A stretch of DNA of 64,000 nt from an uncultured virus (IMG/VR IMGVR_UViG_3300032323_001173) (taxonomy: Duplodnaviria > Heunggongvirae > Uroviricota > Caudoviricetes): the IMG/VR virus record IMGVR_UViG_3300032323_001173, one strand, 5' to 3'. Below the pieces are notes generated by a model. The model did no database searches. It had not been told where the DNA came from and saw nothing but the letters and a program-made list of their open reading frames with translations. Positions 41,375-63,924 of the stretch are shown here, in pieces; position 1 is the first letter of the stretch; every line of letters begins with the position of its first letter. A program made the position numbers and the translations under genes.

Positions 41375-41665
41375 ATGTCGCAAGACCTTAACGCCCCAAT
41401 TGAAGATGTCCTTAAAGTCTCGGGTTCCAGTAACCCACAGAGCGTTGGATCCATTCTCGCCCGTGCAGTCAACGCAGGGCAAGCACCAAAGATGCGAGCC
41501 ATCGGTGCAAGTGCTGTAAATCAAGCCGCTAAAGCCGCCGCTATCGCTAGGGGCTTTGTTGCCCCACGTGGTTTGGATCTCACTTACATTATTGGCTTTG
41601 ATGATATTATTGGAGATAACGGAGAAGCCATCTCGGCTATCTCATTTAAACCCGTAGTGAGGTAA
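41375..41665 (+). CDS. spoVS: Stage V sporulation protein S family (Alba-like fold)
   Basis: VLKVS..SNP.SV...AIGASAVNQA.KA.AIARGFVAP.G.DL...F. Confidence 0.92.
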   Translation: MSQDLNAPIEDVLKVSGSSNPQSVGSILARAVNAGQAPKMRAIGASAVNQAAKAAAIARGFVAPRGLDLTYIIGFDDIIGDNGEAISAISFKPVVR

Positions 41666-50593: not shown

Positions 50594-51010
50594 TTGCCTA
50601 ATCATCAAGATGACTGGCGCATTGATGCTCTCTGCAAAGACCGCCACATTGATCTTTGGTACCCACCACTAGATACTGATGTACCAGAGAATTACTATGT
50701 AATTTCTAGAGCAGTATGTCGTCAATGTCCTGTATGGAAAGAGTGTTTAGACGATGGGCTAGAAGAGAAGTGGGGATTGTGGGGCGGACTCACACCGCAA
50801 GAACGCACAGCGCTTACTGTTGAGCATCCGAAGGCAAGTGTACTTCGTGCACATGGCACGTGGACTCGTTACCGACAAGGTTGCAGGTGTACAGAATGTG
50901 TAGACGCTGAGTCAAAAGAGATTAATCAAATAAACATTCAAGAGATTCCTAAGATGGGTACGCAACTGATTGATTTAGAGATGCTTAAGTTCAGGTTGAT
51001 TCAGCCTTAA
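50594..51010 (+). CDS. whiB: WhiB-family transcriptional regulator with a C-terminal HGT..GCRC..C extension
   Basis: W...ALC...C..CPV...CL...GLWGGLT..ER. Confidence 0.9.
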   Translation: MPNHQDDWRIDALCKDRHIDLWYPPLDTDVPENYYVISRAVCRQCPVWKECLDDGLEEKWGLWGGLTPQERTALTVEHPKASVLRAHGTWTRYRQGCRCTECVDAESKEINQINIQEIPKMGTQLIDLEMLKFRLIQP

Positions 51011-51973: not shown

Positions 51974-53043
51974 GGATTGGGATCGTCAGTGGTGATTACC
52001 TTCCTGCACAGAGAGCCTCTGATGGTGTGCACCATTGGGGTGGCTCGGGCTGGGCACGACTTGGTCAATACACAGAATGGTTGGAGCATTTGGGTAAAGA
52101 AGTAGTTGTAGGAACATTGACATGGAAGGAAGATCGTTTCCTTGTTCGTGACCAACACGAAGAACTACAAGAAGTTCACATGGTCATCATGCAACGCCTT
52201 ATGCACGAAACACTTGCCGAACACATCAACAAGGCTCGTTCCATTGGTCAGGTTGTTGTGAATGACCTAGACGATTGGTACTGGGGTCTTGACCCAGCCA
52301 ATGATGCGTTTTTGTCTTCGCACCCAAAGACCAACCCGAAAGAGAACCGAGATCATTACAAGAAGGTGCTCGCATCAAGCAATGTGGTCACTGTATCCAC
52401 GCAGTACCTTGCTGATCGGATCAAGTCGTTCGTGCATTGCCCTATTATCGTGCTGGAGAACACTGTAGACATCGCACGGTTTACTCCGCATACACACACT
52501 GATAGTTCTATTCCTGTAGTTGGTTGGGTGGGAGCCACGAGCCATCGCTCTAGTGACTTAGAGATCATGAAGGGAATCGTCAACCCTTTACTTGCTAATA
52601 ATGAGATTAAGTTTCAGCACAGTGGGCATTACCCAACGTCAGCGTCAGTAGCCAGCAAACTTGGCTTGCATGATGATCAGGTCACCGTGTTAAATGCGGT
52701 GGACGCCAAAGACTACCCATCACTGTTGACCATGGACGTGGGCATCGCACCATTGCGTGACACGCCATTCAATCATGCCAAGAGCGACATCAAGTTGCTG
52801 GAGTACTCAGCCTCAGGCATTCCATGGGTCGGTTCTGCGCTGTCTTCGTATGAGGGGTTGCGTAAGAATTGGGGGATTGGTCGCACTGCGAGTAAACCAT
52901 CGCAGTGGCTCAAGCATCTGAGGGATCTTCGGGATCCAGTCAGGCGAGCAGACGAGGGAGAGGCTTTGAGAGAAGCAGTGCGCTCACGAGACATCAGCCT
53001 CGGAGCACACCGCCTCAACTCACTTATTGAAGATCTTACGTAA
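51970..53043 (+). CDS. GT-B glycosyltransferase
   Basis: DLDD, VTVST..LA, VGWVG..SH, D.GIAPL...FN.AKS.IK.LEYSA.GIP. Confidence 0.85.
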   Translation: MRIGIVSGDYLPAQRASDGVHHWGGSGWARLGQYTEWLEHLGKEVVVGTLTWKEDRFLVRDQHEELQEVHMVIMQRLMHETLAEHINKARSIGQVVVNDLDDWYWGLDPANDAFLSSHPKTNPKENRDHYKKVLASSNVVTVSTQYLADRIKSFVHCPIIVLENTVDIARFTPHTHTDSSIPVVGWVGATSHRSSDLEIMKGIVNPLLANNEIKFQHSGHYPTSASVASKLGLHDDQVTVLNAVDAKDYPSLLTMDVGIAPLRDTPFNHAKSDIKLLEYSASGIPWVGSALSSYEGLRKNWGIGRTASKPSQWLKHLRDLRDPVRRADEGEALREAVRSRDISLGAHRLNSLIEDLT

Positions 53044-53385
53044 ACTAATACGTTCAACCTTGTCCAGCGACTGCATATCCTTGCCACCCCACACGCCCCA
53101 GCGAATGTCGTTCTTGACGGCAAAGCGTAGGCATTGGAATGACACGGGACAGCCTTTGCATATTGCAACGGCTTCCAGTCGCTTCTTTCTTATTTCTTTT
53201 GTGTAACCCGCTTCACCAGTAGCAAAGAAGGTAGTCACGTCTTCGTGACGACATGCTGAATGCGCACGCCATGTACCAACTTCAGGGAATGGCAACGGAT
53301 CCATGATGTCTTTGTTGACAAGTAAACTCCGATGTAGCGGGGGATTTGACTCCCCCGCATCATCGTAGTAATCCCAACGGTTCAT
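53020..53385 (-). CDS. whiB: Second WhiB-family regulator
   Basis: W...SAC...FF...A..ICKGCPV..QCL...GVWGG. Confidence 0.88.
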   Translation of the reverse strand: MNRWDYYDDAGESNPPLHRSLLVNKDIMDPLPFPEVGTWRAHSACRHEDVTTFFATGEAGYTKEIRKKRLEAVAICKGCPVSFQCLRFAVKNDIRWGVWGGKDMQSLDKVERISLRKIFNK

Positions 53386-54407
53386 GCAAAGACAACGTCA
53401 TTCATGATGCGCAAGACCTGACGGTCAAACTCATCGGTCTTGCCGTTGATTGCATTGAATGCATTGCGCTCCACACGTGAGTCGTCTTTGCCACTGAAGT
53501 GCTGGCTCCACGTGTTGAATGCTTGCAACACGCCGAGACCCGTTCCTGCCCATGGCTCAACTCGTGGGTCGTGCTTGTAGAGGTGACGGATCAACTCTTG
53601 CTTGTTCTGAGCACGGCTGATCGCTTGTGGGCGAGCGTCCAACTCAAGACTCACTGGAACCAAGCGCTCCACAATGGCGTCCCATTCGGACTGAGCAACC
53701 GTGATTGATGCCAAGCGCTCAATCTCTGCGCTTGCTTCATCTGCCATGGCATGGATGATGCCAAGAGCGTCACGAATGTCTTGAATGCGTCCATTGCTGA
53801 ATTTGCTGTGACGGATCTTGAACTCTGATCCCTGTTCACCGAGCGCTCCAGCAAGCGTGTTGTCACAGACCACCGCAGTGACCACTCGTTTGAAGGTGGT
53901 TGCAATGGTGCCGTTGTGGCTCGTGGTGCCGAGCAAGTGTGGACGGATGTCAAAGCCTGCTTTGGTCTGAACTGTTTCAGGCATTTCAATGCTGACCCAA
54001 GCCACACCACCGTTGCGGAGCAAGCCCGCAGAACCGATCTGCAAGTTGCTGTCATCAATGATGTTGCTGATGGTGCCGATCAACCACTGGTCGTACTGGT
54101 GAATCTGATATGAGTCCTTGAACATTCCGAGGGTGTCGTAGGTGTCGTTGCGCACGATCGCCTTGCGGTCGGTCTGTTCAATGTAACGATTGACTCCAGC
54201 GTTGTCAGGCACTTGCACGAACACTGGCGCTTCAACGGCTTGCCAGTTGAACAAGCGACGACGAACATCTTCAACAGGGATCGCCTGCTCGTAATGGTTC
54301 GGTTCGGTTCCCTGATCGGTTGATTTGTAGTGCCATGCGTTCCCACGCTTGGTTGTAAAGCCCACCAGAACGTTCTGGTTGAGCCACTGACTGGTTTCTC
54401 TTGACAT
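53382..54407 (-). CDS. DUF932 / phage-plasmid LGT protein
   Basis: AWH, AG.L..G...W, TSHNG, VVCDNTL and IRH motifs. Confidence 0.85.
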   Translation of the reverse strand: MSRETSQWLNQNVLVGFTTKRGNAWHYKSTDQGTEPNHYEQAIPVEDVRRRLFNWQAVEAPVFVQVPDNAGVNRYIEQTDRKAIVRNDTYDTLGMFKDSYQIHQYDQWLIGTISNIIDDSNLQIGSAGLLRNGGVAWVSIEMPETVQTKAGFDIRPHLLGTTSHNGTIATTFKRVVTAVVCDNTLAGALGEQGSEFKIRHSKFSNGRIQDIRDALGIIHAMADEASAEIERLASITVAQSEWDAIVERLVPVSLELDARPQAISRAQNKQELIRHLYKHDPRVEPWAGTGLGVLQAFNTWSQHFSGKDDSRVERNAFNAINGKTDEFDRQVLRIMNDVVFA

Positions 54408-54461
54408 GATTTTCTCCTTGTTAGTTGATTTGATTATTTGGTGTGTTGTACCACGGCAATA

Positions 54462-54490
54462 AAATTATCACCGTGGTACGGGAATTGCAA
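54462..54490 (-). promoter_or_regulatory. Housekeeping-sigma promoter overlapped by an inverted repeat
   Basis: Minus strand TTGCAA-17 nt-TAATTT with extended TG; GTACCACGG/CCGTGGTAC at 54448-54479. Confidence 0.55.
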
Positions 54491-54499
54491 CTTCTGTTC

Positions 54500-54784
54500 T
54501 TACTTTGTGGGAAGGTCAATGACCTGCCCGTTTTGAATGGTTGACCCGTAGGTCTCTACTAGGTCATTGACGGCGGACTCTATGTTGCCTGAGCAGTTGC
54601 TCTGAGCAATCTCCCACAGGGTCTCCCCGTATGACACGGTGTGCTGTCTCGTGTTGCAGACATACGAGTCCATGCGTTGTGCAAAGTCTCGGAACAGGAA
54701 CAACACGAACGCTGTTACGAGCACCGCAAGGTACCCGTAGAACGCCCATGTAATCCTGCGGTTGATTTTTGTGTAGTCCTTCAT
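54500..54784 (-). CDS. TM-LysM protein (YneA/ChiZ-like architecture)
   Basis: N-terminal TM; HTVSYGETLWEIA...IQNGQVIDLP. Confidence 0.75.
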   Translation of the reverse strand: MKDYTKINRRITWAFYGYLAVLVTAFVLFLFRDFAQRMDSYVCNTRQHTVSYGETLWEIAQSNCSGNIESAVNDLVETYGSTIQNGQVIDLPTK

Positions 54785-56378: not shown

Positions 56379-56414
56379 GATGACCTCCTCAGATCATTGT
56401 TACTTATGGGTGTT

Positions 56415-56501
56415 GCGGGGTTGCTTCACCCCGTGAACACTCCCCAAGGCGGATCAAGGGGAGTGCTCACGGGATGACACCGACATGATCGGTGCCACCG
56501 C
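56415..56501 (-). ncRNA. Intergenic multi-helix RNA element, family B (divergent copy)
   Basis: TGGCACCGA/TCGGTGTCA hairpin followed directly by a long CCCGTGAGCACTCCCC/GGGGAGTGTTCACGGG hairpin. Confidence 0.5.
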
Positions 56502-56514
56502 TCGTGTGAGCCTC

Positions 56515-56766
56515 TCAGGACTCAATTAACGAATCTTCAATCCAATCTAGATCAATGTTGTACAGGTACACAACATGACCCTCGGGAGCGTAGAACTTGA
56601 TGTAGGCGCCCGAGTCGTCATCTTCAAACTGCTCATTGACACTGCCGATGTACTTCATCTTGGACAGTTGCTCCTGCCCGTAGTACTCGTTGGTGTTGAC
56701 GGAGGGGATCAAGAGATCCGCCTCCACCAAGTCCCTGCGGACTACTGGGTAACCACCGAGGATCAC
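56515..56766 (-). CDS. Hypothetical protein
   Basis: GTGA overlap; acidic. Confidence 0.55.
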   Translation of the reverse strand: MILGGYPVVRRDLVEADLLIPSVNTNEYYGQEQLSKMKYIGSVNEQFEDDDSGAYIKFYAPEGHVVYLYNIDLDWIEDSLIES

Positions 56767-56975
56767 GAGAACACGTCCACTTCAAGGATCTTGTTGAGCG
56801 GGATGTCAATCTCACGCTCGTTCTCGTAGGTGTCGTGTGGGCTGTCTGTAGTCCACAATGTCAACTCGGTGTCGCTGATTCGTGAAACGAGTCCTGTGTA
56901 CTCAAATGTCTCCCTCGGAGATATTTGCACGAGCAGTTCTACTTCATCGTCTACTTGCACATTGATGGTTTTCAT
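56763..56975 (-). CDS. Small beta-barrel (SH3/Sm-like) hypothetical protein
   Basis: SD GGAGG; YTGLVSRI...L.L...IDIPL..I.EV. Confidence 0.6.
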   Translation of the reverse strand: MKTINVQVDDEVELLVQISPRETFEYTGLVSRISDTELTLWTTDSPHDTYENEREIDIPLNKILEVDVFS

Positions 56976-57331
56976 TTGTTGCCTCCTTCAAGGTCTAACA
57001 CTGTTTGGTAATAATCTTCATTGCTCATTACTTGCACTTCGTACTTGGTGTTGAAGTCCCCAGTCCATGGGTACTCAGTCACGAAGTAACCGATGCGATT
57101 CACTAGATGACGTCCAGCGAGGATGTATGTGCCTTCCTGCCCGTCCACGTATGTCCACGTGGTGTAGAGCGGTTGCTTGTACACATACTCAACCTCAGCA
57201 CCGTACGTTTCAAACATGATGCCGTTGCCGTCTTCATCTGCCCACGATGCGTCTGCATCTAGGTGATTGACGATGGGCTTGTACTTCTCCTCCCATTCCT
57301 CAACTGACATCTTGATTACTGGCTGTAACAT
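56972..57331 (-). CDS. Conserved phage hypothetical protein
   Basis: SD GAGGAGG; FETYG.E...WT.VDG...G.H.VNRIGYFVTE.PW. Confidence 0.7.
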   Translation of the reverse strand: MLQPVIKMSVEEWEEKYKPIVNHLDADASWADEDGNGIMFETYGAEVEYVYKQPLYTTWTYVDGQEGTYILAGRHLVNRIGYFVTEYPWTGDFNTKYEVQVMSNEDYYQTVLDLEGGNK

Positions 57332-57366
57332 GCGACCTCCTCAGGTCTATAGGGATTAACTAAGTT

Positions 57367-57451
57367 ATCGGGTACTGCGTACCCTCACAACACACAAACA
57401 GAATTTATGTGCTGTGAGAGCACCACGAGCCGTAGCCCGTGATGCCCCGAT
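57367..57451 (-). ncRNA. Intergenic four-way RNA element, family B
   Basis: ATCGG/CCGAT closing stem; GCATCACGGGC-TACG-GCTCGTGGTGC; long hairpin; GTAC-GCA-GTAC. Confidence 0.65.
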
Positions 57452-57714
57452 CAGGCGACATCCTCCCACCATGTCTGTGGCATGTAGAAGTATGCGCCCT
57501 CATGCCAGCCGAATGAGTGGTTGTCAGTAGCGACATTCTCATTCAGCCAATCGGTGGCTACCTGCTCTTGGTACCACGAGTCCTCAATGTCGGTGGGCTG
57601 GCGCCCATCCCAACCAAGTTCTCGTGCGATCCTGCACGCTTCCATGGCGCTGTAGACGCCGTGGTGGTCGTCAACTACCAACCTTGCTCCGTAACCCATT
57701 GTCGCCTTGCTCAT
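57451..57714 (-). CDS. Hypothetical protein
   Basis: SD GGAGG; ATGA overlap. Confidence 0.65.
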   Translation of the reverse strand: MSKATMGYGARLVVDDHHGVYSAMEACRIARELGWDGRQPTDIEDSWYQEQVATDWLNENVATDNHSFGWHEGAYFYMPQTWWEDVA

Positions 57715-57995
57715 TGCTCTACCTCCATGTCAGCGAGCACGAATGGAATCTTGTAGTCAATGTCGTACGACAAGACCACGAAGTCTTCGTTGCCATTGCC
57801 TACGAGCGACTTGAGTTCTTCCTCGCCGTCTTCGCAGTAGAAGAAGACCTCATCGTCACGATTGCCCAGCGAGTCGTACTCGCCGTTCCACTCGTTCTCA
57901 TTCCACGTGCCGAACGAGATGTACACCTCGTCCTCCGCTTGCGTGTCCTTCCATTGGATAATTGCCCACGCACCTATTGGTGTTCCGATTGTCAT
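57711..57995 (-). CDS. Acidic hypothetical protein
   Basis: SD AAGGAG; TAATG coupling. Confidence 0.65.
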   Translation of the reverse strand: MTIGTPIGAWAIIQWKDTQAEDEVYISFGTWNENEWNGEYDSLGNRDDEVFFYCEDGEEELKSLVGNGNEDFVVLSYDIDYKIPFVLADMEVEQ

Positions 57996-58231
57996 TAGAA
58001 CTCTCCTTCTTGAGTGATGTCATAGTTAAGGTAATCCCATGTCAACTGGTTGACACTGCTGTAGCCACCGTTGGCGTCAAACACTGCAACTGCGTTGACC
58101 CACAGTTCCGAGTCTGCCGACAACTCGTTGTTGTCCTTGTCAGTGAACATGTTTGATTCCCACCAAGAGATAGCGATCTCTTCGTCAGGATCAATCCCAC
58201 TTAATAACTTGATTGCTTGACTTACTTTCAT
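57995..58231 (-). CDS. Hypothetical protein
   Basis: SD AAGGAGG; MKVSQAIKLL. Confidence 0.65.
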   Translation of the reverse strand: MKVSQAIKLLSGIDPDEEIAISWWESNMFTDKDNNELSADSELWVNAVAVFDANGGYSSVNQLTWDYLNYDITQEGEF

Positions 58232-58255
58232 GGTTCCCTCCTTACAGGGCTATTT

Positions 58256-58337
58256 GAACATCGGATGATGTCCTGACGGTACACCAGCGGTGTGCCGATG
58301 TACCGTCAGAACACCACGGGCTTGCGCCCGTGATGCA
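58256..58337 (-). ncRNA. Intergenic RNA element, family B
   Basis: GCATCACGGGC-GCAA-GCCCGTGGTGT; CTGACGGTACATCGGC/GCTGGTGTACCGTCAG; small 3' hairpin. Confidence 0.65.
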
Positions 58338-58415
58338 CTGTGAAGCGTCCAGTGAGGACTAGACGCTTCGGATGTCGCTACAGGCGCCGACCATGAAGGC
58401 GCCGAGCGCCAGTGG

Positions 58416-59945
58416 TCAGATGCCGTTGCCGACAATTGCTTCAATGAGCGCCTGAGTGATACTGCCACCCTCGGCTCCCATGTCTTCGCCTTGCCCAGTG
58501 AGAACACTGGAGACGACCTCGTGTTTGCTGTTGAGCAGTGCCCACATGCGATCGTCCAGCAGTGGAAGATCAGGATTGTTGCCCACACCAATCATCCACC
58601 AAGCGAGCACGCTTGATGTCTGACCGATGCGATGCGCACGATCCTCTGCCTGTGTGGCTTCTGCGGGAGTGAATGGGATCTCAGCGAACACCACGTGCGA
58701 TGACGCAGTGAGCGTGAGACCGACACCAGCAGATTGGAATTGCCCGATGAACACTTTGACCTCGGGGTCATTCTGAAATGCATCTACCGATGCCTGCTTG
58801 GCTTCATCATTCATTCCGCCGATGACACGCACCACGCCGTGTGGCTTGAGTGACTCGGTCAACTGTGCGATGACATCCTTGTGATGTGCGAACACGATGA
58901 CCTTCTCACCTTCAGCGACTAGTTGCTCAACGTGATCCACCACGTATGGCACCTTCGCAACACCGAGCAACTTGCGCAGTGCATTGAGCCGTGTGATGGT
59001 CTCAGCCTTGGATGCCTTCTGCCATGCCTCAGCACCGCCGTTGGCAATGATGAAGTCACGGAAGTCATTCTCGGCGTGCATGTATGCGTTGAGATCGCTG
59101 TCGCTGATCTCGGTCGCTACCTGTGCACGGCGCTTGGCAGGCAACTCGGTGAGCACGTCTGATTTGTTACGGCGCACGTAGCACGTGCCTCGCAACTTCT
59201 CATTCAACTCGGTGGTGTTGCTCGCACCGTTGTACACGTAACCCCAGCCATTGTGAATGGGATCGCAGTAACGGAAGCGGAACGCCGACTTGCCACCGAA
59301 CACTCGGTCAAGCCTGCCGAGAATATTCAGCGGGCTGATCAATTCGTTCGGACGATTGACGATGATGGTGCCACTCAAGAGCGTGACGTATCCCTCCTCA
59401 GGGATTGACTTCGCAATGAATGCGATGCCCTTGGTGCGTCCAGCGTTCTCAGTCTTGGCACGGTGTGCCTCGTCAACGATGAGCGCTCCAAACTTGCCAG
59501 CCAACTTGGTTGACCAAGCGTCAATGTTTGAGTCACCGATGATGACGACTGATTCCTTCGGTAGTGCACCGACTTTGTTGCCCGTCACCACAGCCACGTT
59601 GAGCCATGGAGCGAACATCTTGAATGATCGGAGCCAGTTGATGCGAAGCGATGGTGGCACTACTACGAGCACCTTGTGCTTCTCACTGACTGCCTGCACT
59701 GCAACAGCGATACCGCTCGGTGTCTTACCGAGACCCATCTCGTCACCGATGATGACACGCTTCTGCTTCAACGCATAAGCGACACCAGCACGTTGGAATG
59801 GGAACAGCGGAACAGCAAGTTCCACTGGGCATTCGCCGTCATGTGCACTGCTCAGTTCAAGCAACGCAGGGTCAGCAACGATTGCTGGTGGAATGCGATT
59901 CAGTGAACCGAGCAATGTATTTAATTGCTCTAATTGATTACTCAT
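58416..59945 (-). CDS. SNF2/HARP-like helicase
   Basis: DEMGLGKT, VDEAH, LSGT...NRP.EL, GVGLTLT and QAEDRAHRIGQ motifs. Confidence 0.92.
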   Translation of the reverse strand: MSNQLEQLNTLLGSLNRIPPAIVADPALLELSSAHDGECPVELAVPLFPFQRAGVAYALKQKRVIIGDEMGLGKTPSGIAVAVQAVSEKHKVLVVVPPSLRINWLRSFKMFAPWLNVAVVTGNKVGALPKESVVIIGDSNIDAWSTKLAGKFGALIVDEAHRAKTENAGRTKGIAFIAKSIPEEGYVTLLSGTIIVNRPNELISPLNILGRLDRVFGGKSAFRFRYCDPIHNGWGYVYNGASNTTELNEKLRGTCYVRRNKSDVLTELPAKRRAQVATEISDSDLNAYMHAENDFRDFIIANGGAEAWQKASKAETITRLNALRKLLGVAKVPYVVDHVEQLVAEGEKVIVFAHHKDVIAQLTESLKPHGVVRVIGGMNDEAKQASVDAFQNDPEVKVFIGQFQSAGVGLTLTASSHVVFAEIPFTPAEATQAEDRAHRIGQTSSVLAWWMIGVGNNPDLPLLDDRMWALLNSKHEVVSSVLTGQGEDMGAEGGSITQALIEAIVGNGI

Positions 59946-59980
59946 GGTCTGACCTCCTCAGGTCTATTGGAATTATTAAC

Positions 59981-60056
59981 TGCACTTGCGTGCTCACACT
60001 CCACGAGATCGCTCCCATGGAATGTGAGCACGCCACGAGCGTGTGCCCGTGACGTG
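59981..60056 (-). ncRNA. Intergenic RNA element, family B
   Basis: ACGTCACGGGC-ACAC-GCTCGTGGCGT; long hairpin with GCGA loop; GCAC-GCAA-GTGC. Confidence 0.65.
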
Positions 60057-60061
60057 ACCAC

Positions 60062-60778
60062 CTAGAACCTGCTTGCGCAGTCGTTACCGATGCCAGCCTT
60101 GCGTGTTGCTTCATCAGTGAGATGACGACCGCACACACAGCAACGCCCGATCTCTTGACCGTAGAGCGTCATTGCCTGCTTGCGTTCATCCTCACTGAGT
60201 GACGTGATGCGCTTGATTGAATTGACCAAGCGCTCGCCACGCAACTTCTCGTCAGCGTGACCGCCGACCACGATGTACATGCCACGTTGACCCTTGAGGC
60301 TCGCATTGTGGTAGCCCTTATTGGTCTTGATCGCATAGAACACGAGATCATTGGTGCCCGTTGACTGCAACGCATAGAAGCCGTCCTTGACGTCAGCGAA
60401 GAGCGACTGCTCATCAACTGGCTTGGCGATGACTTCGGCTGAGCACTCACCAGCCTTGTGGAATGTCTGCCAGCCACCAGCAGTTTGAACGCTCCAGCCA
60501 TGACCGATCTGCACGGTGTGTCCGCACAGTTGGCATGGCTTGGCGATCTTATTGACGATGGTGCGATCACCCTTAGGCAAGTGCTCGGTGCCCACCCGCT
60601 TGATCTCAATCTTTTTGATTGCATCAATGACGAGCGAAGCATCCTTGGTTGACAATGCATTCACGTTCTGATCTACGAGGTACTGGTCAACCCCAGCCTC
60701 ATCAAGACCGAGTGTGACCGCACGCTCTAAGAGCATCGTGCGAATGAATGCCTGTTGCTTTGGTGTTATTGCTCCCAT
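60062..60778 (-). CDS. DUF6011-domain protein
   Basis: T.KQ..FI..L N-terminus; G.CCVCGR.LTD......GIG.DCA. Confidence 0.8.
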   Translation of the reverse strand: MGAITPKQQAFIRTMLLERAVTLGLDEAGVDQYLVDQNVNALSTKDASLVIDAIKKIEIKRVGTEHLPKGDRTIVNKIAKPCQLCGHTVQIGHGWSVQTAGGWQTFHKAGECSAEVIAKPVDEQSLFADVKDGFYALQSTGTNDLVFYAIKTNKGYHNASLKGQRGMYIVVGGHADEKLRGERLVNSIKRITSLSEDERKQAMTLYGQEIGRCCVCGRHLTDEATRKAGIGNDCASRF

Positions 60779-60807
60779 AAAACCTCCTCAAGTTTCAGTT
60801 AGGGAAT

Positions 60808-60892
60808 GTGAATGGACTTGCGTCCTCGGAATGCACCGATGGGGGAACCGATGCACTCCGAGCACGCCATGGCTTGCGCCATGACTGCCCAC
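60808..60892 (-). ncRNA. Intergenic RNA element, family B
   Basis: GTCATGGC-GCAA-GCCATGGC; CTCGGAGTGCATCGGT/ATCGGTGCATTCCGAG; GGAC-GCAA-GTCC. Confidence 0.62.
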
Positions 60893-60902
60893 TGCTAATT
60901 GC

Positions 60903-61151
60903 TCAAACGTATTTTGATGTGATGTCTGCGATTGCATTTGACAACACCTGCTTAACGTTGCTGTCATCGTGAACGAACAGCGTGAGCGTGTGTTCCAACT
61001 TTGCGTAACCAAACGCCTCTTCACCGACTGGGTAGAAGGTATTGGTGTGAGCCAATTCCTGATACTCAATGACGATGTCTATCGTTTGGAATGTTGGGTC
61101 ATCAGACTTCGCAATGCGAATTCCAGTGACACGGTGGATACTTGCATCCAT
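60903..61151 (-). CDS. Hypothetical protein
   Basis: SD GAGGAGG. Confidence 0.65.
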   Translation of the reverse strand: MDASIHRVTGIRIAKSDDPTFQTIDIVIEYQELAHTNTFYPVGEEAFGYAKLEHTLTLFVHDDSNVKQVLSNAIADITSKYV

Positions 61152-61181
61152 AGTTGACCTCCTCGTGGTCTATTTGGGTTG

Positions 61182-61268
61182 GATCGGGCATTGTAATGCC
61201 CTCAGTACGCACCGACAACGCCGATGCGCACTGAGGGCACCACGGGCGAACCCGTGATGCTCCCGATC
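61182..61268 (-). ncRNA. Intergenic four-way RNA element, family B
   Basis: GATCGGG/CCCGATC; GCATCACGGG-TTCG-CCCGTGGTGC; long hairpin; GCAT-TACA-ATGC. Confidence 0.65.
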
Positions 61269-61270
61269 AC

Positions 61271-61807
61271 TCACACTCGTGATGCGATCTTCTCAATAAT
61301 TAATTGCAGAGTCTCAAGGTTGAGACCCATCAAGTCATCGTTGAGTTTGTTCCATTGCTTGTCAGTAACCGTGGGGCTACTGATGTGTCGGACAAGCGCA
61401 TTCACCTGCTGTTGCTTGGAGTATGTGTTGTCCTTTTTGGCTTGCCAATCAGCCTTTACTTCGGCGTCACGCTGTACCACGTATTCTTCAATGGTCTGAC
61501 CGAAGTCTGCGTGGTGCCACTCAATCTCACGTGGTGGAACCCACGAGCGTGTGTTCAGTGTTACTGAAGGCAAGCGCTCGGGGAACCCCTCGTGACCTTC
61601 ATAACCACTGTTGAATGTCTCGTAACGCACTGTGAATCGCACATCAACACGGGTGCCCGACTTGCGACCCCATTCGTTGTGAGTGTCCACGACCTTCTCC
61701 TCAATCTTGGTGATTGAGGCGTAGTGCGAGTACCGACCACGTCCGCCGTAACGGAACACCGCATTCGGATTCTTGGCAAGTATTTGCTTTATCTCTGATG
61801 TTTTCAT
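61271..61807 (-). CDS. Hypothetical protein
   Basis: SD GAGGAGG; 178 aa. Confidence 0.7.
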   Translation of the reverse strand: MKTSEIKQILAKNPNAVFRYGGRGRYSHYASITKIEEKVVDTHNEWGRKSGTRVDVRFTVRYETFNSGYEGHEGFPERLPSVTLNTRSWVPPREIEWHHADFGQTIEEYVVQRDAEVKADWQAKKDNTYSKQQQVNALVRHISSPTVTDKQWNKLNDDLMGLNLETLQLIIEKIASRV

Positions 61808-61844
61808 GGTGTGGAGCCTCCTCTGCTCCGAGGGCTATTTGCCC

Positions 61845-61887
61845 AGTCCCCAGTACCGATTGAACGGTCACGCCTAAAGCGCTGGGG
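61845..61887 (-). ncRNA. tRNA-elbow-like three-way junction, family A copy 1
   Basis: CCCCAG-CGCT-TTA-GGCG-TG-ACCG-TTCAAT-CGGT-A-CTGGGG-ACT. Confidence 0.72.
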
Positions 61888-61894
61888 GAATTGG

Positions 61895-62185
61895 TTAGTA
61901 GGAACCCCAATTGTCATCATCGGTGACGATGTTTCGCACGACATCGTCAGCGATACCGCACTTGATCAAGAATGCCCTGTTCTCTTCTGCCGTTCGGCAT
62001 TCATTGATCGCACCGCAGGACATGCCGAGTTGATCCGCAATTGACTGCCACAGCATCCACAGAGCGATGTGTGCACGCTCATGATGCCGATGCCACATTG
62101 CCTTGTCACTCTGCGTTGACATTGAATCAAAGCGGGCGTGCTGACAAATTGCCTTTGCAATTGTTTCTTCTATTCCGAATTTCAT
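61895..62185 (-). CDS. Hypothetical protein
   Basis: SD GAGGAGG before ATG 62185. Confidence 0.65.
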   Translation of the reverse strand: MKFGIEETIAKAICQHARFDSMSTQSDKAMWHRHHERAHIALWMLWQSIADQLGMSCGAINECRTAEENRAFLIKCGIADDVVRNIVTDDDNWGSY

Positions 62186-62229
62186 GGTGACCTCCTCGGG
62201 TCTTGTATTCACGACACTCGTGTGTCGCT

Positions 62230-62272
62230 AGTCCCCAGTGCGAATTGAATCGCCACGACCTAGTCGCTGGGG
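62230..62272 (-). ncRNA. tRNA-elbow-like three-way junction, family A copy 2
   Basis: CCCCAG-CGAC-TAG-GTCG-TG-GCGA-TTCAAT-TCGC-A-CTGGGG-ACT. Confidence 0.72.
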
Positions 62273-62277
62273 GAAAC

Positions 62278-62532
62278 TCACTGCGCCTTCTCCTTCGCTT
62301 GCTGTGCAAGTTGGAAGTCAAGGTGACTCACAGCGTCACGGCGGAGTTCATACGCTTCACCGTTAAATGCTCGGTCACCTGTTTCAATGTTGATGATCAG
62401 CCAGTCAACACGGCGAACCTCAGGGCAACCCTTGGTGTGAAACTTCCAACACAATTCGTGGTCACAACAGGATGGGTCAGCCCAGTATTCGTCCTTGATG
62501 ATGGCGTATTTGCTTCCCTTGTATGCCTTCAT
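62278..62532 (-). CDS. Hypothetical protein
   Basis: SD GAGGAGG; CCDH..C..H..GC. Confidence 0.65.
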   Translation of the reverse strand: MKAYKGSKYAIIKDEYWADPSCCDHELCWKFHTKGCPEVRRVDWLIINIETGDRAFNGEAYELRRDAVSHLDFQLAQQAKEKAQ

Positions 62533-62570
62533 GGTGCCTCCTCAGGCAGTTGTAACTGGCGGGTGCCAGT

Positions 62571-62613
62571 AGTCCCCAGTCCCGATTGAACGGGCACGCC
62601 CTAGGCGCTGGGG
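62571..62613 (-). ncRNA. tRNA-elbow-like three-way junction, family A copy 3
   Basis: CCCCAG-CGCC-TAG-GGCG-TG-CCCG-TTCAAT-CGGG-A-CTGGGG-ACT. Confidence 0.72.
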
Positions 62614-62619
62614 TGACGC

Positions 62620-63597
62620 TCAATCTTGAATGACCCGTCCACCACCGTGGGCATCCACGATGGCTTGAGCCTGCTCACGAGTGAGTAAGTCAATTTTCTT
62701 GGTTGACGGCGCCCATGTGGTGCCGTTCCAGTATTTGGTGTCGTATCCGACCTCTTTGGTGGCGTAGAAGCGAGGACGGCGATGCGCACGGGACTTGCCG
62801 TCCGCACGCTGTGCGTATCCGCACACTGGGCAGTTGTGCCAGCGATCACCTCGGATCGTTGGTTGACCACTGCCCTCGCAACGCTCCTGAGCACGCTTCA
62901 CAGCGTTCGCACGAGCCTTCTCACGGGCTTGCTGGAATGCCTCCACGCCCTGCTCGGCAAGTGTCAACGCCACGCTGGCGCTGATCTTGACCTGCTCACG
63001 TGACTCCACAGGAGCGTCAGGGAAGCAGACCGAGCACAGCGCCGATCCGAGATCGGCAACAGCATCCTCGGAACTGGATCCGCTGAGGTAAGGCACGAGC
63101 GCAAAGCCTGTTGGCTCGTGACCCTTATTGCAGGTGGAGCACTGCGTGCTGGAGTGAATGTGCCCGTCCGATGACGTCACGAGGTAGTAGCGACTCCATG
63201 GACGACTGCTGTATTCGGTGTTGCAGTCGCTGACGTCACGTTGTGCGTCCTCCAGTGCGATGCGAGCCTCAGTGAAGCGCTCGGCGTAACTGGTGGGCAG
63301 TGATCCGTACTTGCTGATCACGCCGTCATTGAACATGGCTTCGGCTTTGGCACCCGTCAACTGGATGCCCCGTGCCTCTGCAAACTCGGTTGGCATTGGA
63401 TCCAGTCGGTAGTCAACGACAGCCACGCTGTCACGCTGATAGCGACCGTTGTCCCAACGCAACTCTTTGCCGTAGGCACTGACCAAGGAGTCCGAGGCGT
63501 AGGAGTAGTGAACCATTGCCCGAGACTGGATGAATAAGCGCTCTAGATAGAGCAGGTCGTGCTCTACAGGAGTCAAGGTGGATAGTGAGACGCTCAT
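62620..63597 (-). CDS. Zn-binding hypothetical protein of actinophage type
   Basis: SD AAGGAGG; WSRY.LV...GHIH...CSTC, LCSVCFPDAP and CEGSG...CPVCG. Confidence 0.7.
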   Translation of the reverse strand: MSVSLSTLTPVEHDLLYLERLFIQSRAMVHYSYASDSLVSAYGKELRWDNGRYQRDSVAVVDYRLDPMPTEFAEARGIQLTGAKAEAMFNDGVISKYGSLPTSYAERFTEARIALEDAQRDVSDCNTEYSSRPWSRYYLVTSSDGHIHSSTQCSTCNKGHEPTGFALVPYLSGSSSEDAVADLGSALCSVCFPDAPVESREQVKISASVALTLAEQGVEAFQQAREKARANAVKRAQERCEGSGQPTIRGDRWHNCPVCGYAQRADGKSRAHRRPRFYATKEVGYDTKYWNGTTWAPSTKKIDLLTREQAQAIVDAHGGGRVIQD

Positions 63598-63635
63598 GGT
63601 GAGCCTCCTTTGGATGAACTGGCTGTGTGCCAGTG

Positions 63636-63729
63636 GAGCGTGTTTGACGCTCATTCAGGACTGGAGCAGGGGGAATTCTCCAGCCCTCAATGAGCGCCAC
63701 GAGCCATCCGAAGATTGACCCGTGACGCT
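63636..63729 (-). ncRNA. Intergenic RNA element, family B
   Basis: AGCGTCACGGGTC...GGCTCGTGGCGCT; long hairpin; AGCGT/ACGCT. Confidence 0.6.
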
Positions 63730-63924
63730 GAGGAATAGGTGCCCTGAAGTCAGCGAACGGTGTGTGCCGTTGAGTAATGCGCCGTGGGGGACTGTTGTTC
63801 AATTCCCCCGTGGCGGGCGTGCATGGATCCGTTGAAGCCATCTCTGCGAGGCACGAGGTCAGCCGATGTGAAGTCGGGTACGTGCCACATGCATGCGTGC
63901 ATTTTTGCCGAAGCATTCGGGCGC

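Follow-up and report, generated by a model that had tools for sequence, protein, structure and literature searches.

What kind of signal separates the genes in the leftward gene block of the uncultured virus IMGVR_UViG_3300032323_001173? The question is raised by seven intergenic elements, named family B here, which lie within about 7.4 kb of the 64,000-nucleotide stretch of this IMG/VR record that was analysed (the window). Each copy consists of three directly abutting hairpins, H1, H2 and H3, on the minus strand, which is the sense strand, in gaps between co-directional genes. The earlier note on this DNA had proposed a structured family common to homologues, and this is borne out by strong covariation. 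Family B is a new structured RNA family of a known general kind, that of the phage intercistronic signals. As to its function, the analogy with the early region of bacteriophage T7 leads us to favour intercistronic processing and stability signals, a reading which we put somewhat short of probable.

Part of the evidence for the family comes from its relatives. The helicase gene of the block recruited 27 related viral loci with 64-99% protein identity. Five full-length records contain 6, 7, 7, 4 and 5 sense-strand copies, each set within a single block of 4-8 kb on the helicase strand. A covariance model was made from 34 distinct copies (6 from the window and 28 from relatives), and 31 sources gave 130 hits at E<=1e-9, all of them on the gene strand and representing 80 distinct sequences. 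When the orthologues of the copy behind the helicase gene (E3, 12 sequences) were aligned with MAFFT, 99.0% of the cells were paired and 6 of the 32 pairs had changed on both sides. For all copy types (MAFFT, 34 sequences) the values were 97.4% and 17 of 25 pairs, and the alignment of the 80 distinct sequences, which was fitted with the model and hence leans toward structure, gave 97.8% and 21 of 25 pairs. In none of the three was the result reached by any of 500 shuffles, and slid controls of the 34-copy alignment paired in 33-45% of the cells. Among the 1979 cells of the 80-copy alignment there are 307 G·U cells against 43 non-pairs. G·U so far above mismatches indicates that one strand folds, namely the coding (sense) strand.

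The distribution of the family is narrow. Zero true members were found in cellular genomes (185,579 species genomes, searched with a pattern plus the model). A pattern of H1 plus the base of H2 matched at seven cellular places in diverse taxa, all scoring at most 34 bits, and the one that was examined lacked the long hairpin; these were taken as chance matches. With an H1-only pattern 161 viral loci were matched, of which 80 were listed and 48 of these 80 scored with the model; among the 48, full members (at least 62 bits) occurred only in more contigs of the same phage kind, and the others did not exceed 34 bits. The window gave zero matches to Rfam 15 at gathering scores, ribozymes and tRNA-like elements included. 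In E-value mode only sub-threshold hits at chance level were obtained, the best being PyrR over E1 (37.1 bits against a cut-off of 54). ARAGORN reported no tRNA or tmRNA in the window. Self-cleavage, for which the earlier note had suggested an assay, is not supported, as the elements have neither a conserved unpaired core nor a match to a ribozyme family. Literature searches, which did not cover supplements, turned up no published description of a family-B element.

The seven copies of the window, in the order of transcription and with their covariance model scores, are as follows.

63631-63731, minus strand: E7, in the leader that precedes the block's first gene, 49.1 bits; H1 extended, with a UUCG cap; H2 of about 20 bp with one mismatch; H3 GAGCGU-CAAAC-ACGCUC.
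61180-61263, minus strand: E6, 73.5 bits; H1 CAUCACGGG-UUCG-CCCGUGGUG; H2 of 22 bp; H3 GGGCAU-UACA-AUGCCC; closing stem AUCGGG/CCCGAU, starting 4 nt past the TGA of gene 61271-61807.
60804-60890, minus strand: E5, 57.8 bits; variant H1 GUCAUGGC-GCAA-GCCAUGGC; H2 of 20 bp; H3 GGAC-GCAA-GUCC.
59972-60058, minus strand: E4, flanked by the genes for DUF6011 (60062-60778) and the SNF2 helicase (58416-59945), 66.7 bits; H1 GUCACGGGC-ACAC-GCUCGUGGC; H2 of 21 bp; H3 GCAC-GCAA-GUGC.
58252-58339, minus strand: E3, after the helicase gene, 94 bits; H1 at 58312-58335 (GCAA loop), H2 core at 58273-58309 and H3 at 58257-58272.
57363-57448, minus strand: E2, 79.2 bits; H1 with a UACG loop; H2 of 21 bp with 5 G·U pairs; H3 GGGUAC-GCA-GUACCC; closing stem overlapping the TGA of gene 57451-57714.
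56410-56501, minus strand: E1, a divergent member outside the training set, 21.6 bits (E 6.9e-5); three abutting hairpins without the UCACGGG first arm, the long middle helix being closed by CCCGUGA/UCACGGG.

Thus, each of the seven places named in the earlier note, from 56415 to 63636, does hold an element, those positions agreeing with the low ends of the model hits. The motif RUCACGGG-loop-CYCGUGGY, which had been noticed in five copies, is present in those at 57.4, 58.3, 60.0, 61.2 and 63.7 kb; the 60.8-kb copy has the compensated variant GUCAUGGC/GCCAUGGC and the 56.4-kb copy lacks the motif and retains the three hairpins. The UUCG, UACG and GCAA loops, the short third hairpin and the closing stems described at the same time are all present in the folds. 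In a search of the window with filters off, the six training copies scored 49.1-94 bits and the untrained E1 the 21.6 bits given above, as compared to 11.5 bits (E 0.075) for the best unrelated match; the antisense images of the elements scored 11-32 bits. Of the pattern CACGRG-N4-12-CYCGTG there are 4 occurrences, where 0.14 would be expected, and none of 100 shuffles gave as many. The seven element gaps are the most structured of the window, with sense z of -5.4 to -9.9 and -0.46 to -0.55 kcal/mol per nt, whereas no other gap has a z stronger than -4.7. In all seven, sense beats antisense folding by 4-21 kcal/mol.

The geometry of the fold is regular. H1 has the consensus (R)CAUCACGGG-loop-CCCGUGGUG, in which the arms UCACGGG/CCCGUGG carry a fixed U·G wobble and the cap is usually GNRA or UNCG; the loops of the 34 copies are GCAA in 11, UUCG in 10, UACG in 8, GUGA in 3 and other in 2. 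The second hairpin had been described as a helix of 15-18 bp with unrelated sequence abutting the first. The long helix, its unrelated sequence and its abutment on H1 hold good, but the length does not: folded alone, H2 measures 22 bp in 18 of the 34 copies, while 13 have 21 bp and 3 have 20 bp. The five basal pairs that account for the extra length form in 169 of 170 cells and covary (pair 38-89 is UA in 27 and CG in 7 copies; pair 40-87 is CG in 20, UA in 11 and UG in 3). Eight unlike sequence classes of H2 span 18-25 bp, with 47 of 62 within 20-22 bp, and the helices are continuous with at most one mismatch. On both strands of the long H2 most copies have GGUG (or GGCG)-N11-CAUN, the N11 being free of indels in 34 of 34. 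H2 is therefore a two-fold symmetric helix with a wobble box at each end, the boxes being one turn apart. In several copies a closing stem joins both flanks (e.g. AUCGGG/CCCGAU). H3 is short and is followed by about 10-25 nt, a small Shine-Dalgarno hairpin and the start codon.

In 78 distinct contexts H1 starts at most 15 nt after a stop codon in 42, at 16-40 nt in 14 and at more than 40 nt in 19, with no upstream frame in 3; the upstream frame was assigned by a simple heuristic, which may count spurious frames. The group beyond 40 nt consists mainly of the post-helicase copy, where two extra hairpins intervene, and of the leader copy. From the end of the model to the next start codon there are 13-35 nt (median 23) in 78 of 78 distinct contexts. 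At gene starts in the 56.3-63.6 kb region the box GACC-UGAGGA-GGUC of the ribosome-binding-site hairpin is conserved, often with AAUAG just ahead, and three gaps carry a second type of element, family A, in the same slot from the stop codon to this hairpin. These neighbouring signals are located as follows.

57334-57347, minus strand: ribosome-binding-site hairpin box GACC-UGAGGA-GGUC.
59950-59963 and 61156-61170, minus strand: other ribosome-binding-site hairpin boxes.
62533-62619, 62186-62277 and 61808-61894, minus strand: family A.
58340-58415, minus strand: two more strong hairpins between the helicase stop codon and E3.

The two hairpins at 58340-58415 are kept at equal spacing (80-82 nt) in 13 orthologous contexts. 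Family A is a three-way junction of about 40 nt with a closing stem CCCCAG/CUGGGG, a 4-bp hairpin and a hairpin with an invariant T-loop-like UUCAAU. Relatives have many copies of it with the compensated stems CCCUAG/CUAGGG, CCCGUG/CACGGG and CCCGCA/UGCGGG, and in some relatives its closing stem shares the words CACGGG/CCCGUG with H1. A leader hairpin has the loop AUUGAA, which could make a kissing contact with UUCAAU of family A; this idea was dropped, because the leader context is not conserved in the loci L005, L013 and L017.

From the observed structure, strand, conservation, geometry and position of the elements we infer a cleavage, an enzyme and an effect on stability in the following way. 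The elements would act in cis as sense-strand RNA modules on a single long early transcript, synthesised by the RNA polymerase of the host, with each module sitting between a stop codon and the next ribosome-binding site. In a first step host RNase III, which is dimeric and specific for double strands, would bind and cut the two-turn (20-22 bp), two-fold symmetric middle helix, with its GGUG/CAUC box and U·G wobble at each end, one helical turn apart. The upstream cistron would then be left with a very stable, tetraloop-capped H1 shielding its 3' end, and the downstream cistron would start with H3 and the ribosome-binding-site hairpin shielding its 5' end. It is proposed that a cut between H1 and H3 would thus give each cassette its own stability and translation, independent of its neighbours. 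In T7 the upstream product is left with a 3' hairpin after processing, and the same would hold for family B.

The T7 and T3 early RNase III signals are the closest model for such a function. In the cited text of PMC3867540 the idealised E. coli RNase III substrate is a two-fold symmetric helix of 22 bp, i.e. two A-helical turns, with recognition boxes, and the T7 early precursor of about 7000 nt has five RNase III signals. Seven family-B signals lie in about 7.4 kb, so that both systems would have several intercistronic hairpin signals on one host-polymerase early RNA of about 7 kb (five in T7, as that text gives it, and seven here). The signals of both have a duplex of about two helical turns, found in family B as an H2 of 20-22 bp in 34 of 34 copies. 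The elements are also intercistronic and on the sense strand, all 130 hits being on the gene strand, from the stop codon to the next start. The suggestion of the earlier note that the long helices fit RNase III substrates is strengthened by a 20-22 bp helix with GGUG-N11-CAUC on both strands; the cleavage itself stays a prediction. Family B differs from the T7 and T3 signals by its near-perfect helix, conserved first hairpin, third hairpin and two-register junction, and its host is actinobacterial. The RNase III family was found in 0 of 4 complete phage relatives and is present in an actinobacterial control genome.

A number of observations weigh against processing by RNase III. The internal loop of T7 signals has no counterpart in the near-perfect H2 helices; in T7 R1.1 this loop confines the cut to a single strand. 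In three gaps the slot is taken by family A, which has no long duplex; should both families serve one purpose, it is not RNase III cleavage as such. H1 is conserved in sequence more strictly than a passive 3' hairpin would require. The conservation of the boxes could partly stem from the copying of one ancestral module. The idealised substrate is that of E. coli RNase III and the actinobacterial rules may not match it. The sole RNA run consists of contigs, which are unable to show RNA ends, and cleavage is a prediction from the fold. In this metatranscriptome run (X19) the depth is 2-9 over coding parts, and none of the 8 listed pieces bridges an element, although such gaps prove nothing in a set of contigs. 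It was also observed that a 167-nt contig of X19, identical to the window at 63743-63909 and just 5' (sense) of E7, has a depth of 53 as compared to 2-9 in coding parts. This stretch, which shows no unusual structure (z 0.06), may represent a small RNA or a stable leader; depth in contigs is a poor measure.

Strong hairpins behind stop codons also bring termination to mind. The elements could be terminators or attenuators without U-tracts, made of hairpin clusters, which stop a share of the host polymerases and set up an expression gradient or need a phage antiterminator; we regard this as unlikely. Clusters of two to five strong hairpins do start a few bases past stop codons, and a computational study argues, in the cited text of PMC8355165, that in many bacteria transcription is ended by hairpin clusters lying no more than 80 nt from stop codons, poly-U being unnecessary. 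The host is actinobacterial, with two WhiB genes in the window. On the other hand family B is intra-operon and of fixed geometry, one arm is conserved and a start codon follows within 13-35 nt; moreover, ten structured gaps follow one another in 7.4 kb with essential-looking genes (helicase, DUF932) downstream. No excess of promoter-like sites is there to restart transcription (7 against 7.4 in shuffles in a consensus scan), one weak promoter-like site lying inside E6 and none recurring between copies, so that a sigma-70 promoter as part of the module was rejected. A sigma factor (sigma-70 region 2) was found in 0 of 4 complete relatives; T7-type RNA polymerase was likewise found in 0 of 4, which is uninformative since the search control matched nowhere. 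The fixed 20-22 bp helix, the symmetric boxes and the sequence-conserved first arm are all unneeded by a terminator. The simple terminator which the earlier note had named as a refuting outcome, i.e. an intrinsic one with a U-tract, is not what was found: 7 terminator-like sites occur against 8.7 in shuffles, none at the 3' end of an element, and no T-run follows H1, H2 or H3.

REP-like repeats (repetitive extragenic palindromes), the other outcome named there, are also at variance with the data. Like the REP sequences and the bacterial interspersed mosaic elements (BIMEs) built from them, family B consists of intergenic imperfect palindromes, and REP elements can stabilise upstream mRNA. REP elements are scattered over the host chromosome in both orientations; family B forms one block in one orientation in 5 of 5 phage records, and no true member was found in the cellular genomes searched. 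Each record has 4-7 copies, confined to a single strand and to a block of 4-8 kb, and the H2 sequences form eight unlike classes; a REP/BIME or a repeat like a miniature inverted-repeat transposable element (MITE), whose copies would be nearly identical, was therefore rejected.

The conservation within the boxes calls for another alternative, that of a platform for a sequence-specific RNA-binding protein of phage or host, which would recognise the CAUC/GGUG wobble boxes without cleavage and control translation of the next gene, processivity of RNA polymerase (as put RNA does) or RNA decay. We consider this quite unlikely. In its favour, C8-G34 and C49-G95 occur without exception in the 80 copies and the U·G wobble of H1 in 75 of them, amid neighbouring pairs that covary, and the boxes are two-fold symmetric and one helical turn apart. 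Motifs at the same place are also known from actinophages, namely the start-associated sequences and extended start-associated sequences (SAS/ESAS) of Cluster K mycobacteriophages and Cluster EF Microbacterium phages, for which the authors suspected a bound factor (cited text of PMC3203893). SAS is a conserved box of 13 bp that covers the ribosome-binding site and lies 3-8 bp ahead of the start, and ESAS is an upstream inverted repeat that is imperfect; its departures lend no support to RNA pairing, and the authors favoured DNA binding. The likeness to family B extends to the restriction to non-structural genes, to a Shine-Dalgarno box with palindromic ends (GGG-AUAGGAG-CCC there, GACC-UGAGGA-GGUC here) and to an inverted repeat just upstream of the box. 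In contrast, family B pairs in 97.8% of cells with compensating changes, and there is no sequence likeness. Against a binding platform stands that no RNA-related or RNA-binding domain was recognised among the block proteins in searches of Pfam, PHROGs, NCBIfam and PDB sequences, and that the element does not sequester the ribosome-binding site in either tested state.

The earlier note had seen that the sequences at the junction can pair in two ways, and this pairing does exist and is near-isoenergetic over the 34 copies. The 5' strand of H1 carries CAUC, the same as in the H2 box, and because of this GGUG can pair leftward (long H1, H3 formed) or rightward (long H2, closing stem formed). The energy difference between the registers has a mean of 0.79, a standard deviation of 1.88 and a range of -3.4 to 5.1 kcal/mol on about -50 kcal/mol. 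The switchable junction is thus real as a thermodynamic possibility of the modelled folds. A switch hiding the ribosome-binding site is a different matter and was rejected: the GAGGA/AGGAG core has an unpaired probability of 0.60-1.00 without a ribosome, calculated over only the loop part of the ribosome-binding-site hairpin. When the stop codon and 13 nt are held open, this probability shifts by at most 0.01 in six family-B gaps, and it drops only in two family-A gaps. In a further reading, which we hold to be hardly probable, the bistable four-way junction would branch-migrate, and translation of the upstream cassette would gate cleavage or the binding of a dimeric protein, the modules doubling as recombination joints. 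A ribosome terminating at the nearby upstream stop would cover the 5' CAUC and the closing stem and so set the register, the full two-turn symmetric helix would exist only after this, and the recombination joints would belong to a phage cassette array working without an integrase.

Gene exchange adds another dimension. Homology with six relatives breaks at gene boundaries, as seen from the ends of long matches: 23 of 38 such ends lie at most 10 nt from one of the ten structured gaps, these gaps accounting for 19% of the region and the 38 ends not being independent events since the six relatives share ancestry. If the first gene starts at ATG 63597, a 24th end falls 3 nt within it, at 63594. 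The gene 62620-63597 has no counterpart in the six loci and is therefore a swapped cassette, and the elements on both its sides do have counterparts. With the modules conserved and the intervening genes differing, the modules would also act as homology patches for cassette exchange, a correlation that is observed. The first block gene (62620-63654) probably starts at ATG 63597, with AAAGGAGG ahead of the ATG, rather than at 63654.

This bears on a role at the DNA level, in which the elements are conserved linkers, or single-strand hairpins of the lagging-strand template, which promote cassette exchange or prime replication; we consider such a role very unlikely as the primary one. Exchange of this kind is known from the promoter early stem-loops (PeSLs) of T4-type phages, which mediate such shuffling and are, in the cited parts of PMC2839356 and PMC4122927, repeated intergenic modules among small early genes of unknown function at borders of gene content. 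Family B, too, lies at the borders where close relatives differ by an insertion, a deletion or a replacement. In metagenome contigs one structured gap is joined to another (59968 to 62571, 58234 to 62183, 61260 to 62528 and 61810 to 62188), and the relative L002 has an origin-like stretch with three DnaA boxes just upstream. On the other side, plain homology needs no compensating changes, G·U bias, RNA-type tetraloops or fixed start-codon distance. A PeSL, as those sources describe it, is a sigma-70 promoter plus a terminator stem-loop; family B has neither the strong sigma-70-like early promoter nor the terminator and is a covarying three-hairpin unit. Tyrosine recombinase (PF00589) and Y1 transposase were each found in 0 of 4 complete relatives, and with the PF00589 control positive in 14 of 14 genomes, an integron attC site, which would belong to a cassette array next to an IntI tyrosine recombinase, was rejected. 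The stretch in L002 (1925-2100) has three perfect DnaA boxes (TTATCCACA or its complement) together with TGACGTTCGTCACG repeats, in a 1.2-kb non-coding region between divergent gene blocks, upstream of the block and past the end of the window. Judged by sequence, it is likely to be the replication origin and early promoter region.

The window is part of a freshwater actinobacterial myophage of about 97 kb. The four complete relatives are 95-97 kb each and rated 99-100% complete, and the DNA of the window occurs in freshwater metagenomes. The plus strand up to about 53 kb codes for portal, sheath, tube, baseplate, family-A DNA polymerase, DnaB, primase and RecA, and the minus strand at 53.0-63.6 kb holds the leftward block, mostly of small genes without known function. 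Two WhiB-family genes (50594-51010, plus strand; 53020-53385, minus strand) and a sheath protein nearest to Streptomyces phage sheaths (32-33% identity) indicate an actinobacterial host. A SpoVS-like gene lies at 41375-41665; it and the WhiB genes are consistent with such a host. A megablast search of an 8-kb region against cultured phages gave zero matches, and the block-protein searches named above recognised only the SNF2 helicase, DUF6011, DUF932 and a weak YneA-like match. On the minus strand at 54408-54499, upstream of the DUF932 gene and between 54500-54784 and 53382-54407, there is a perfect 14-bp hairpin, GUACCACGGUGAUA-AUUU-UAUUGCCGUGGUAC. It has a sense z of -4.6 and no U-tract, and it is outside family B.

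Family B, which is absent from Rfam, comes from abundant uncultured freshwater actinophages. Its regular geometry, with a two-turn helix, symmetric wobble boxes, tetraloop caps and a mobile junction, makes it readily testable. The link of the modules to the borders of swapped genes bears on the way in which mosaic phage genomes are built. If the elements are processing signals, they would extend the T7 style of messenger punctuation to phages of actinobacteria, and they would offer compact insulator parts for polycistronic designs in these bacteria.

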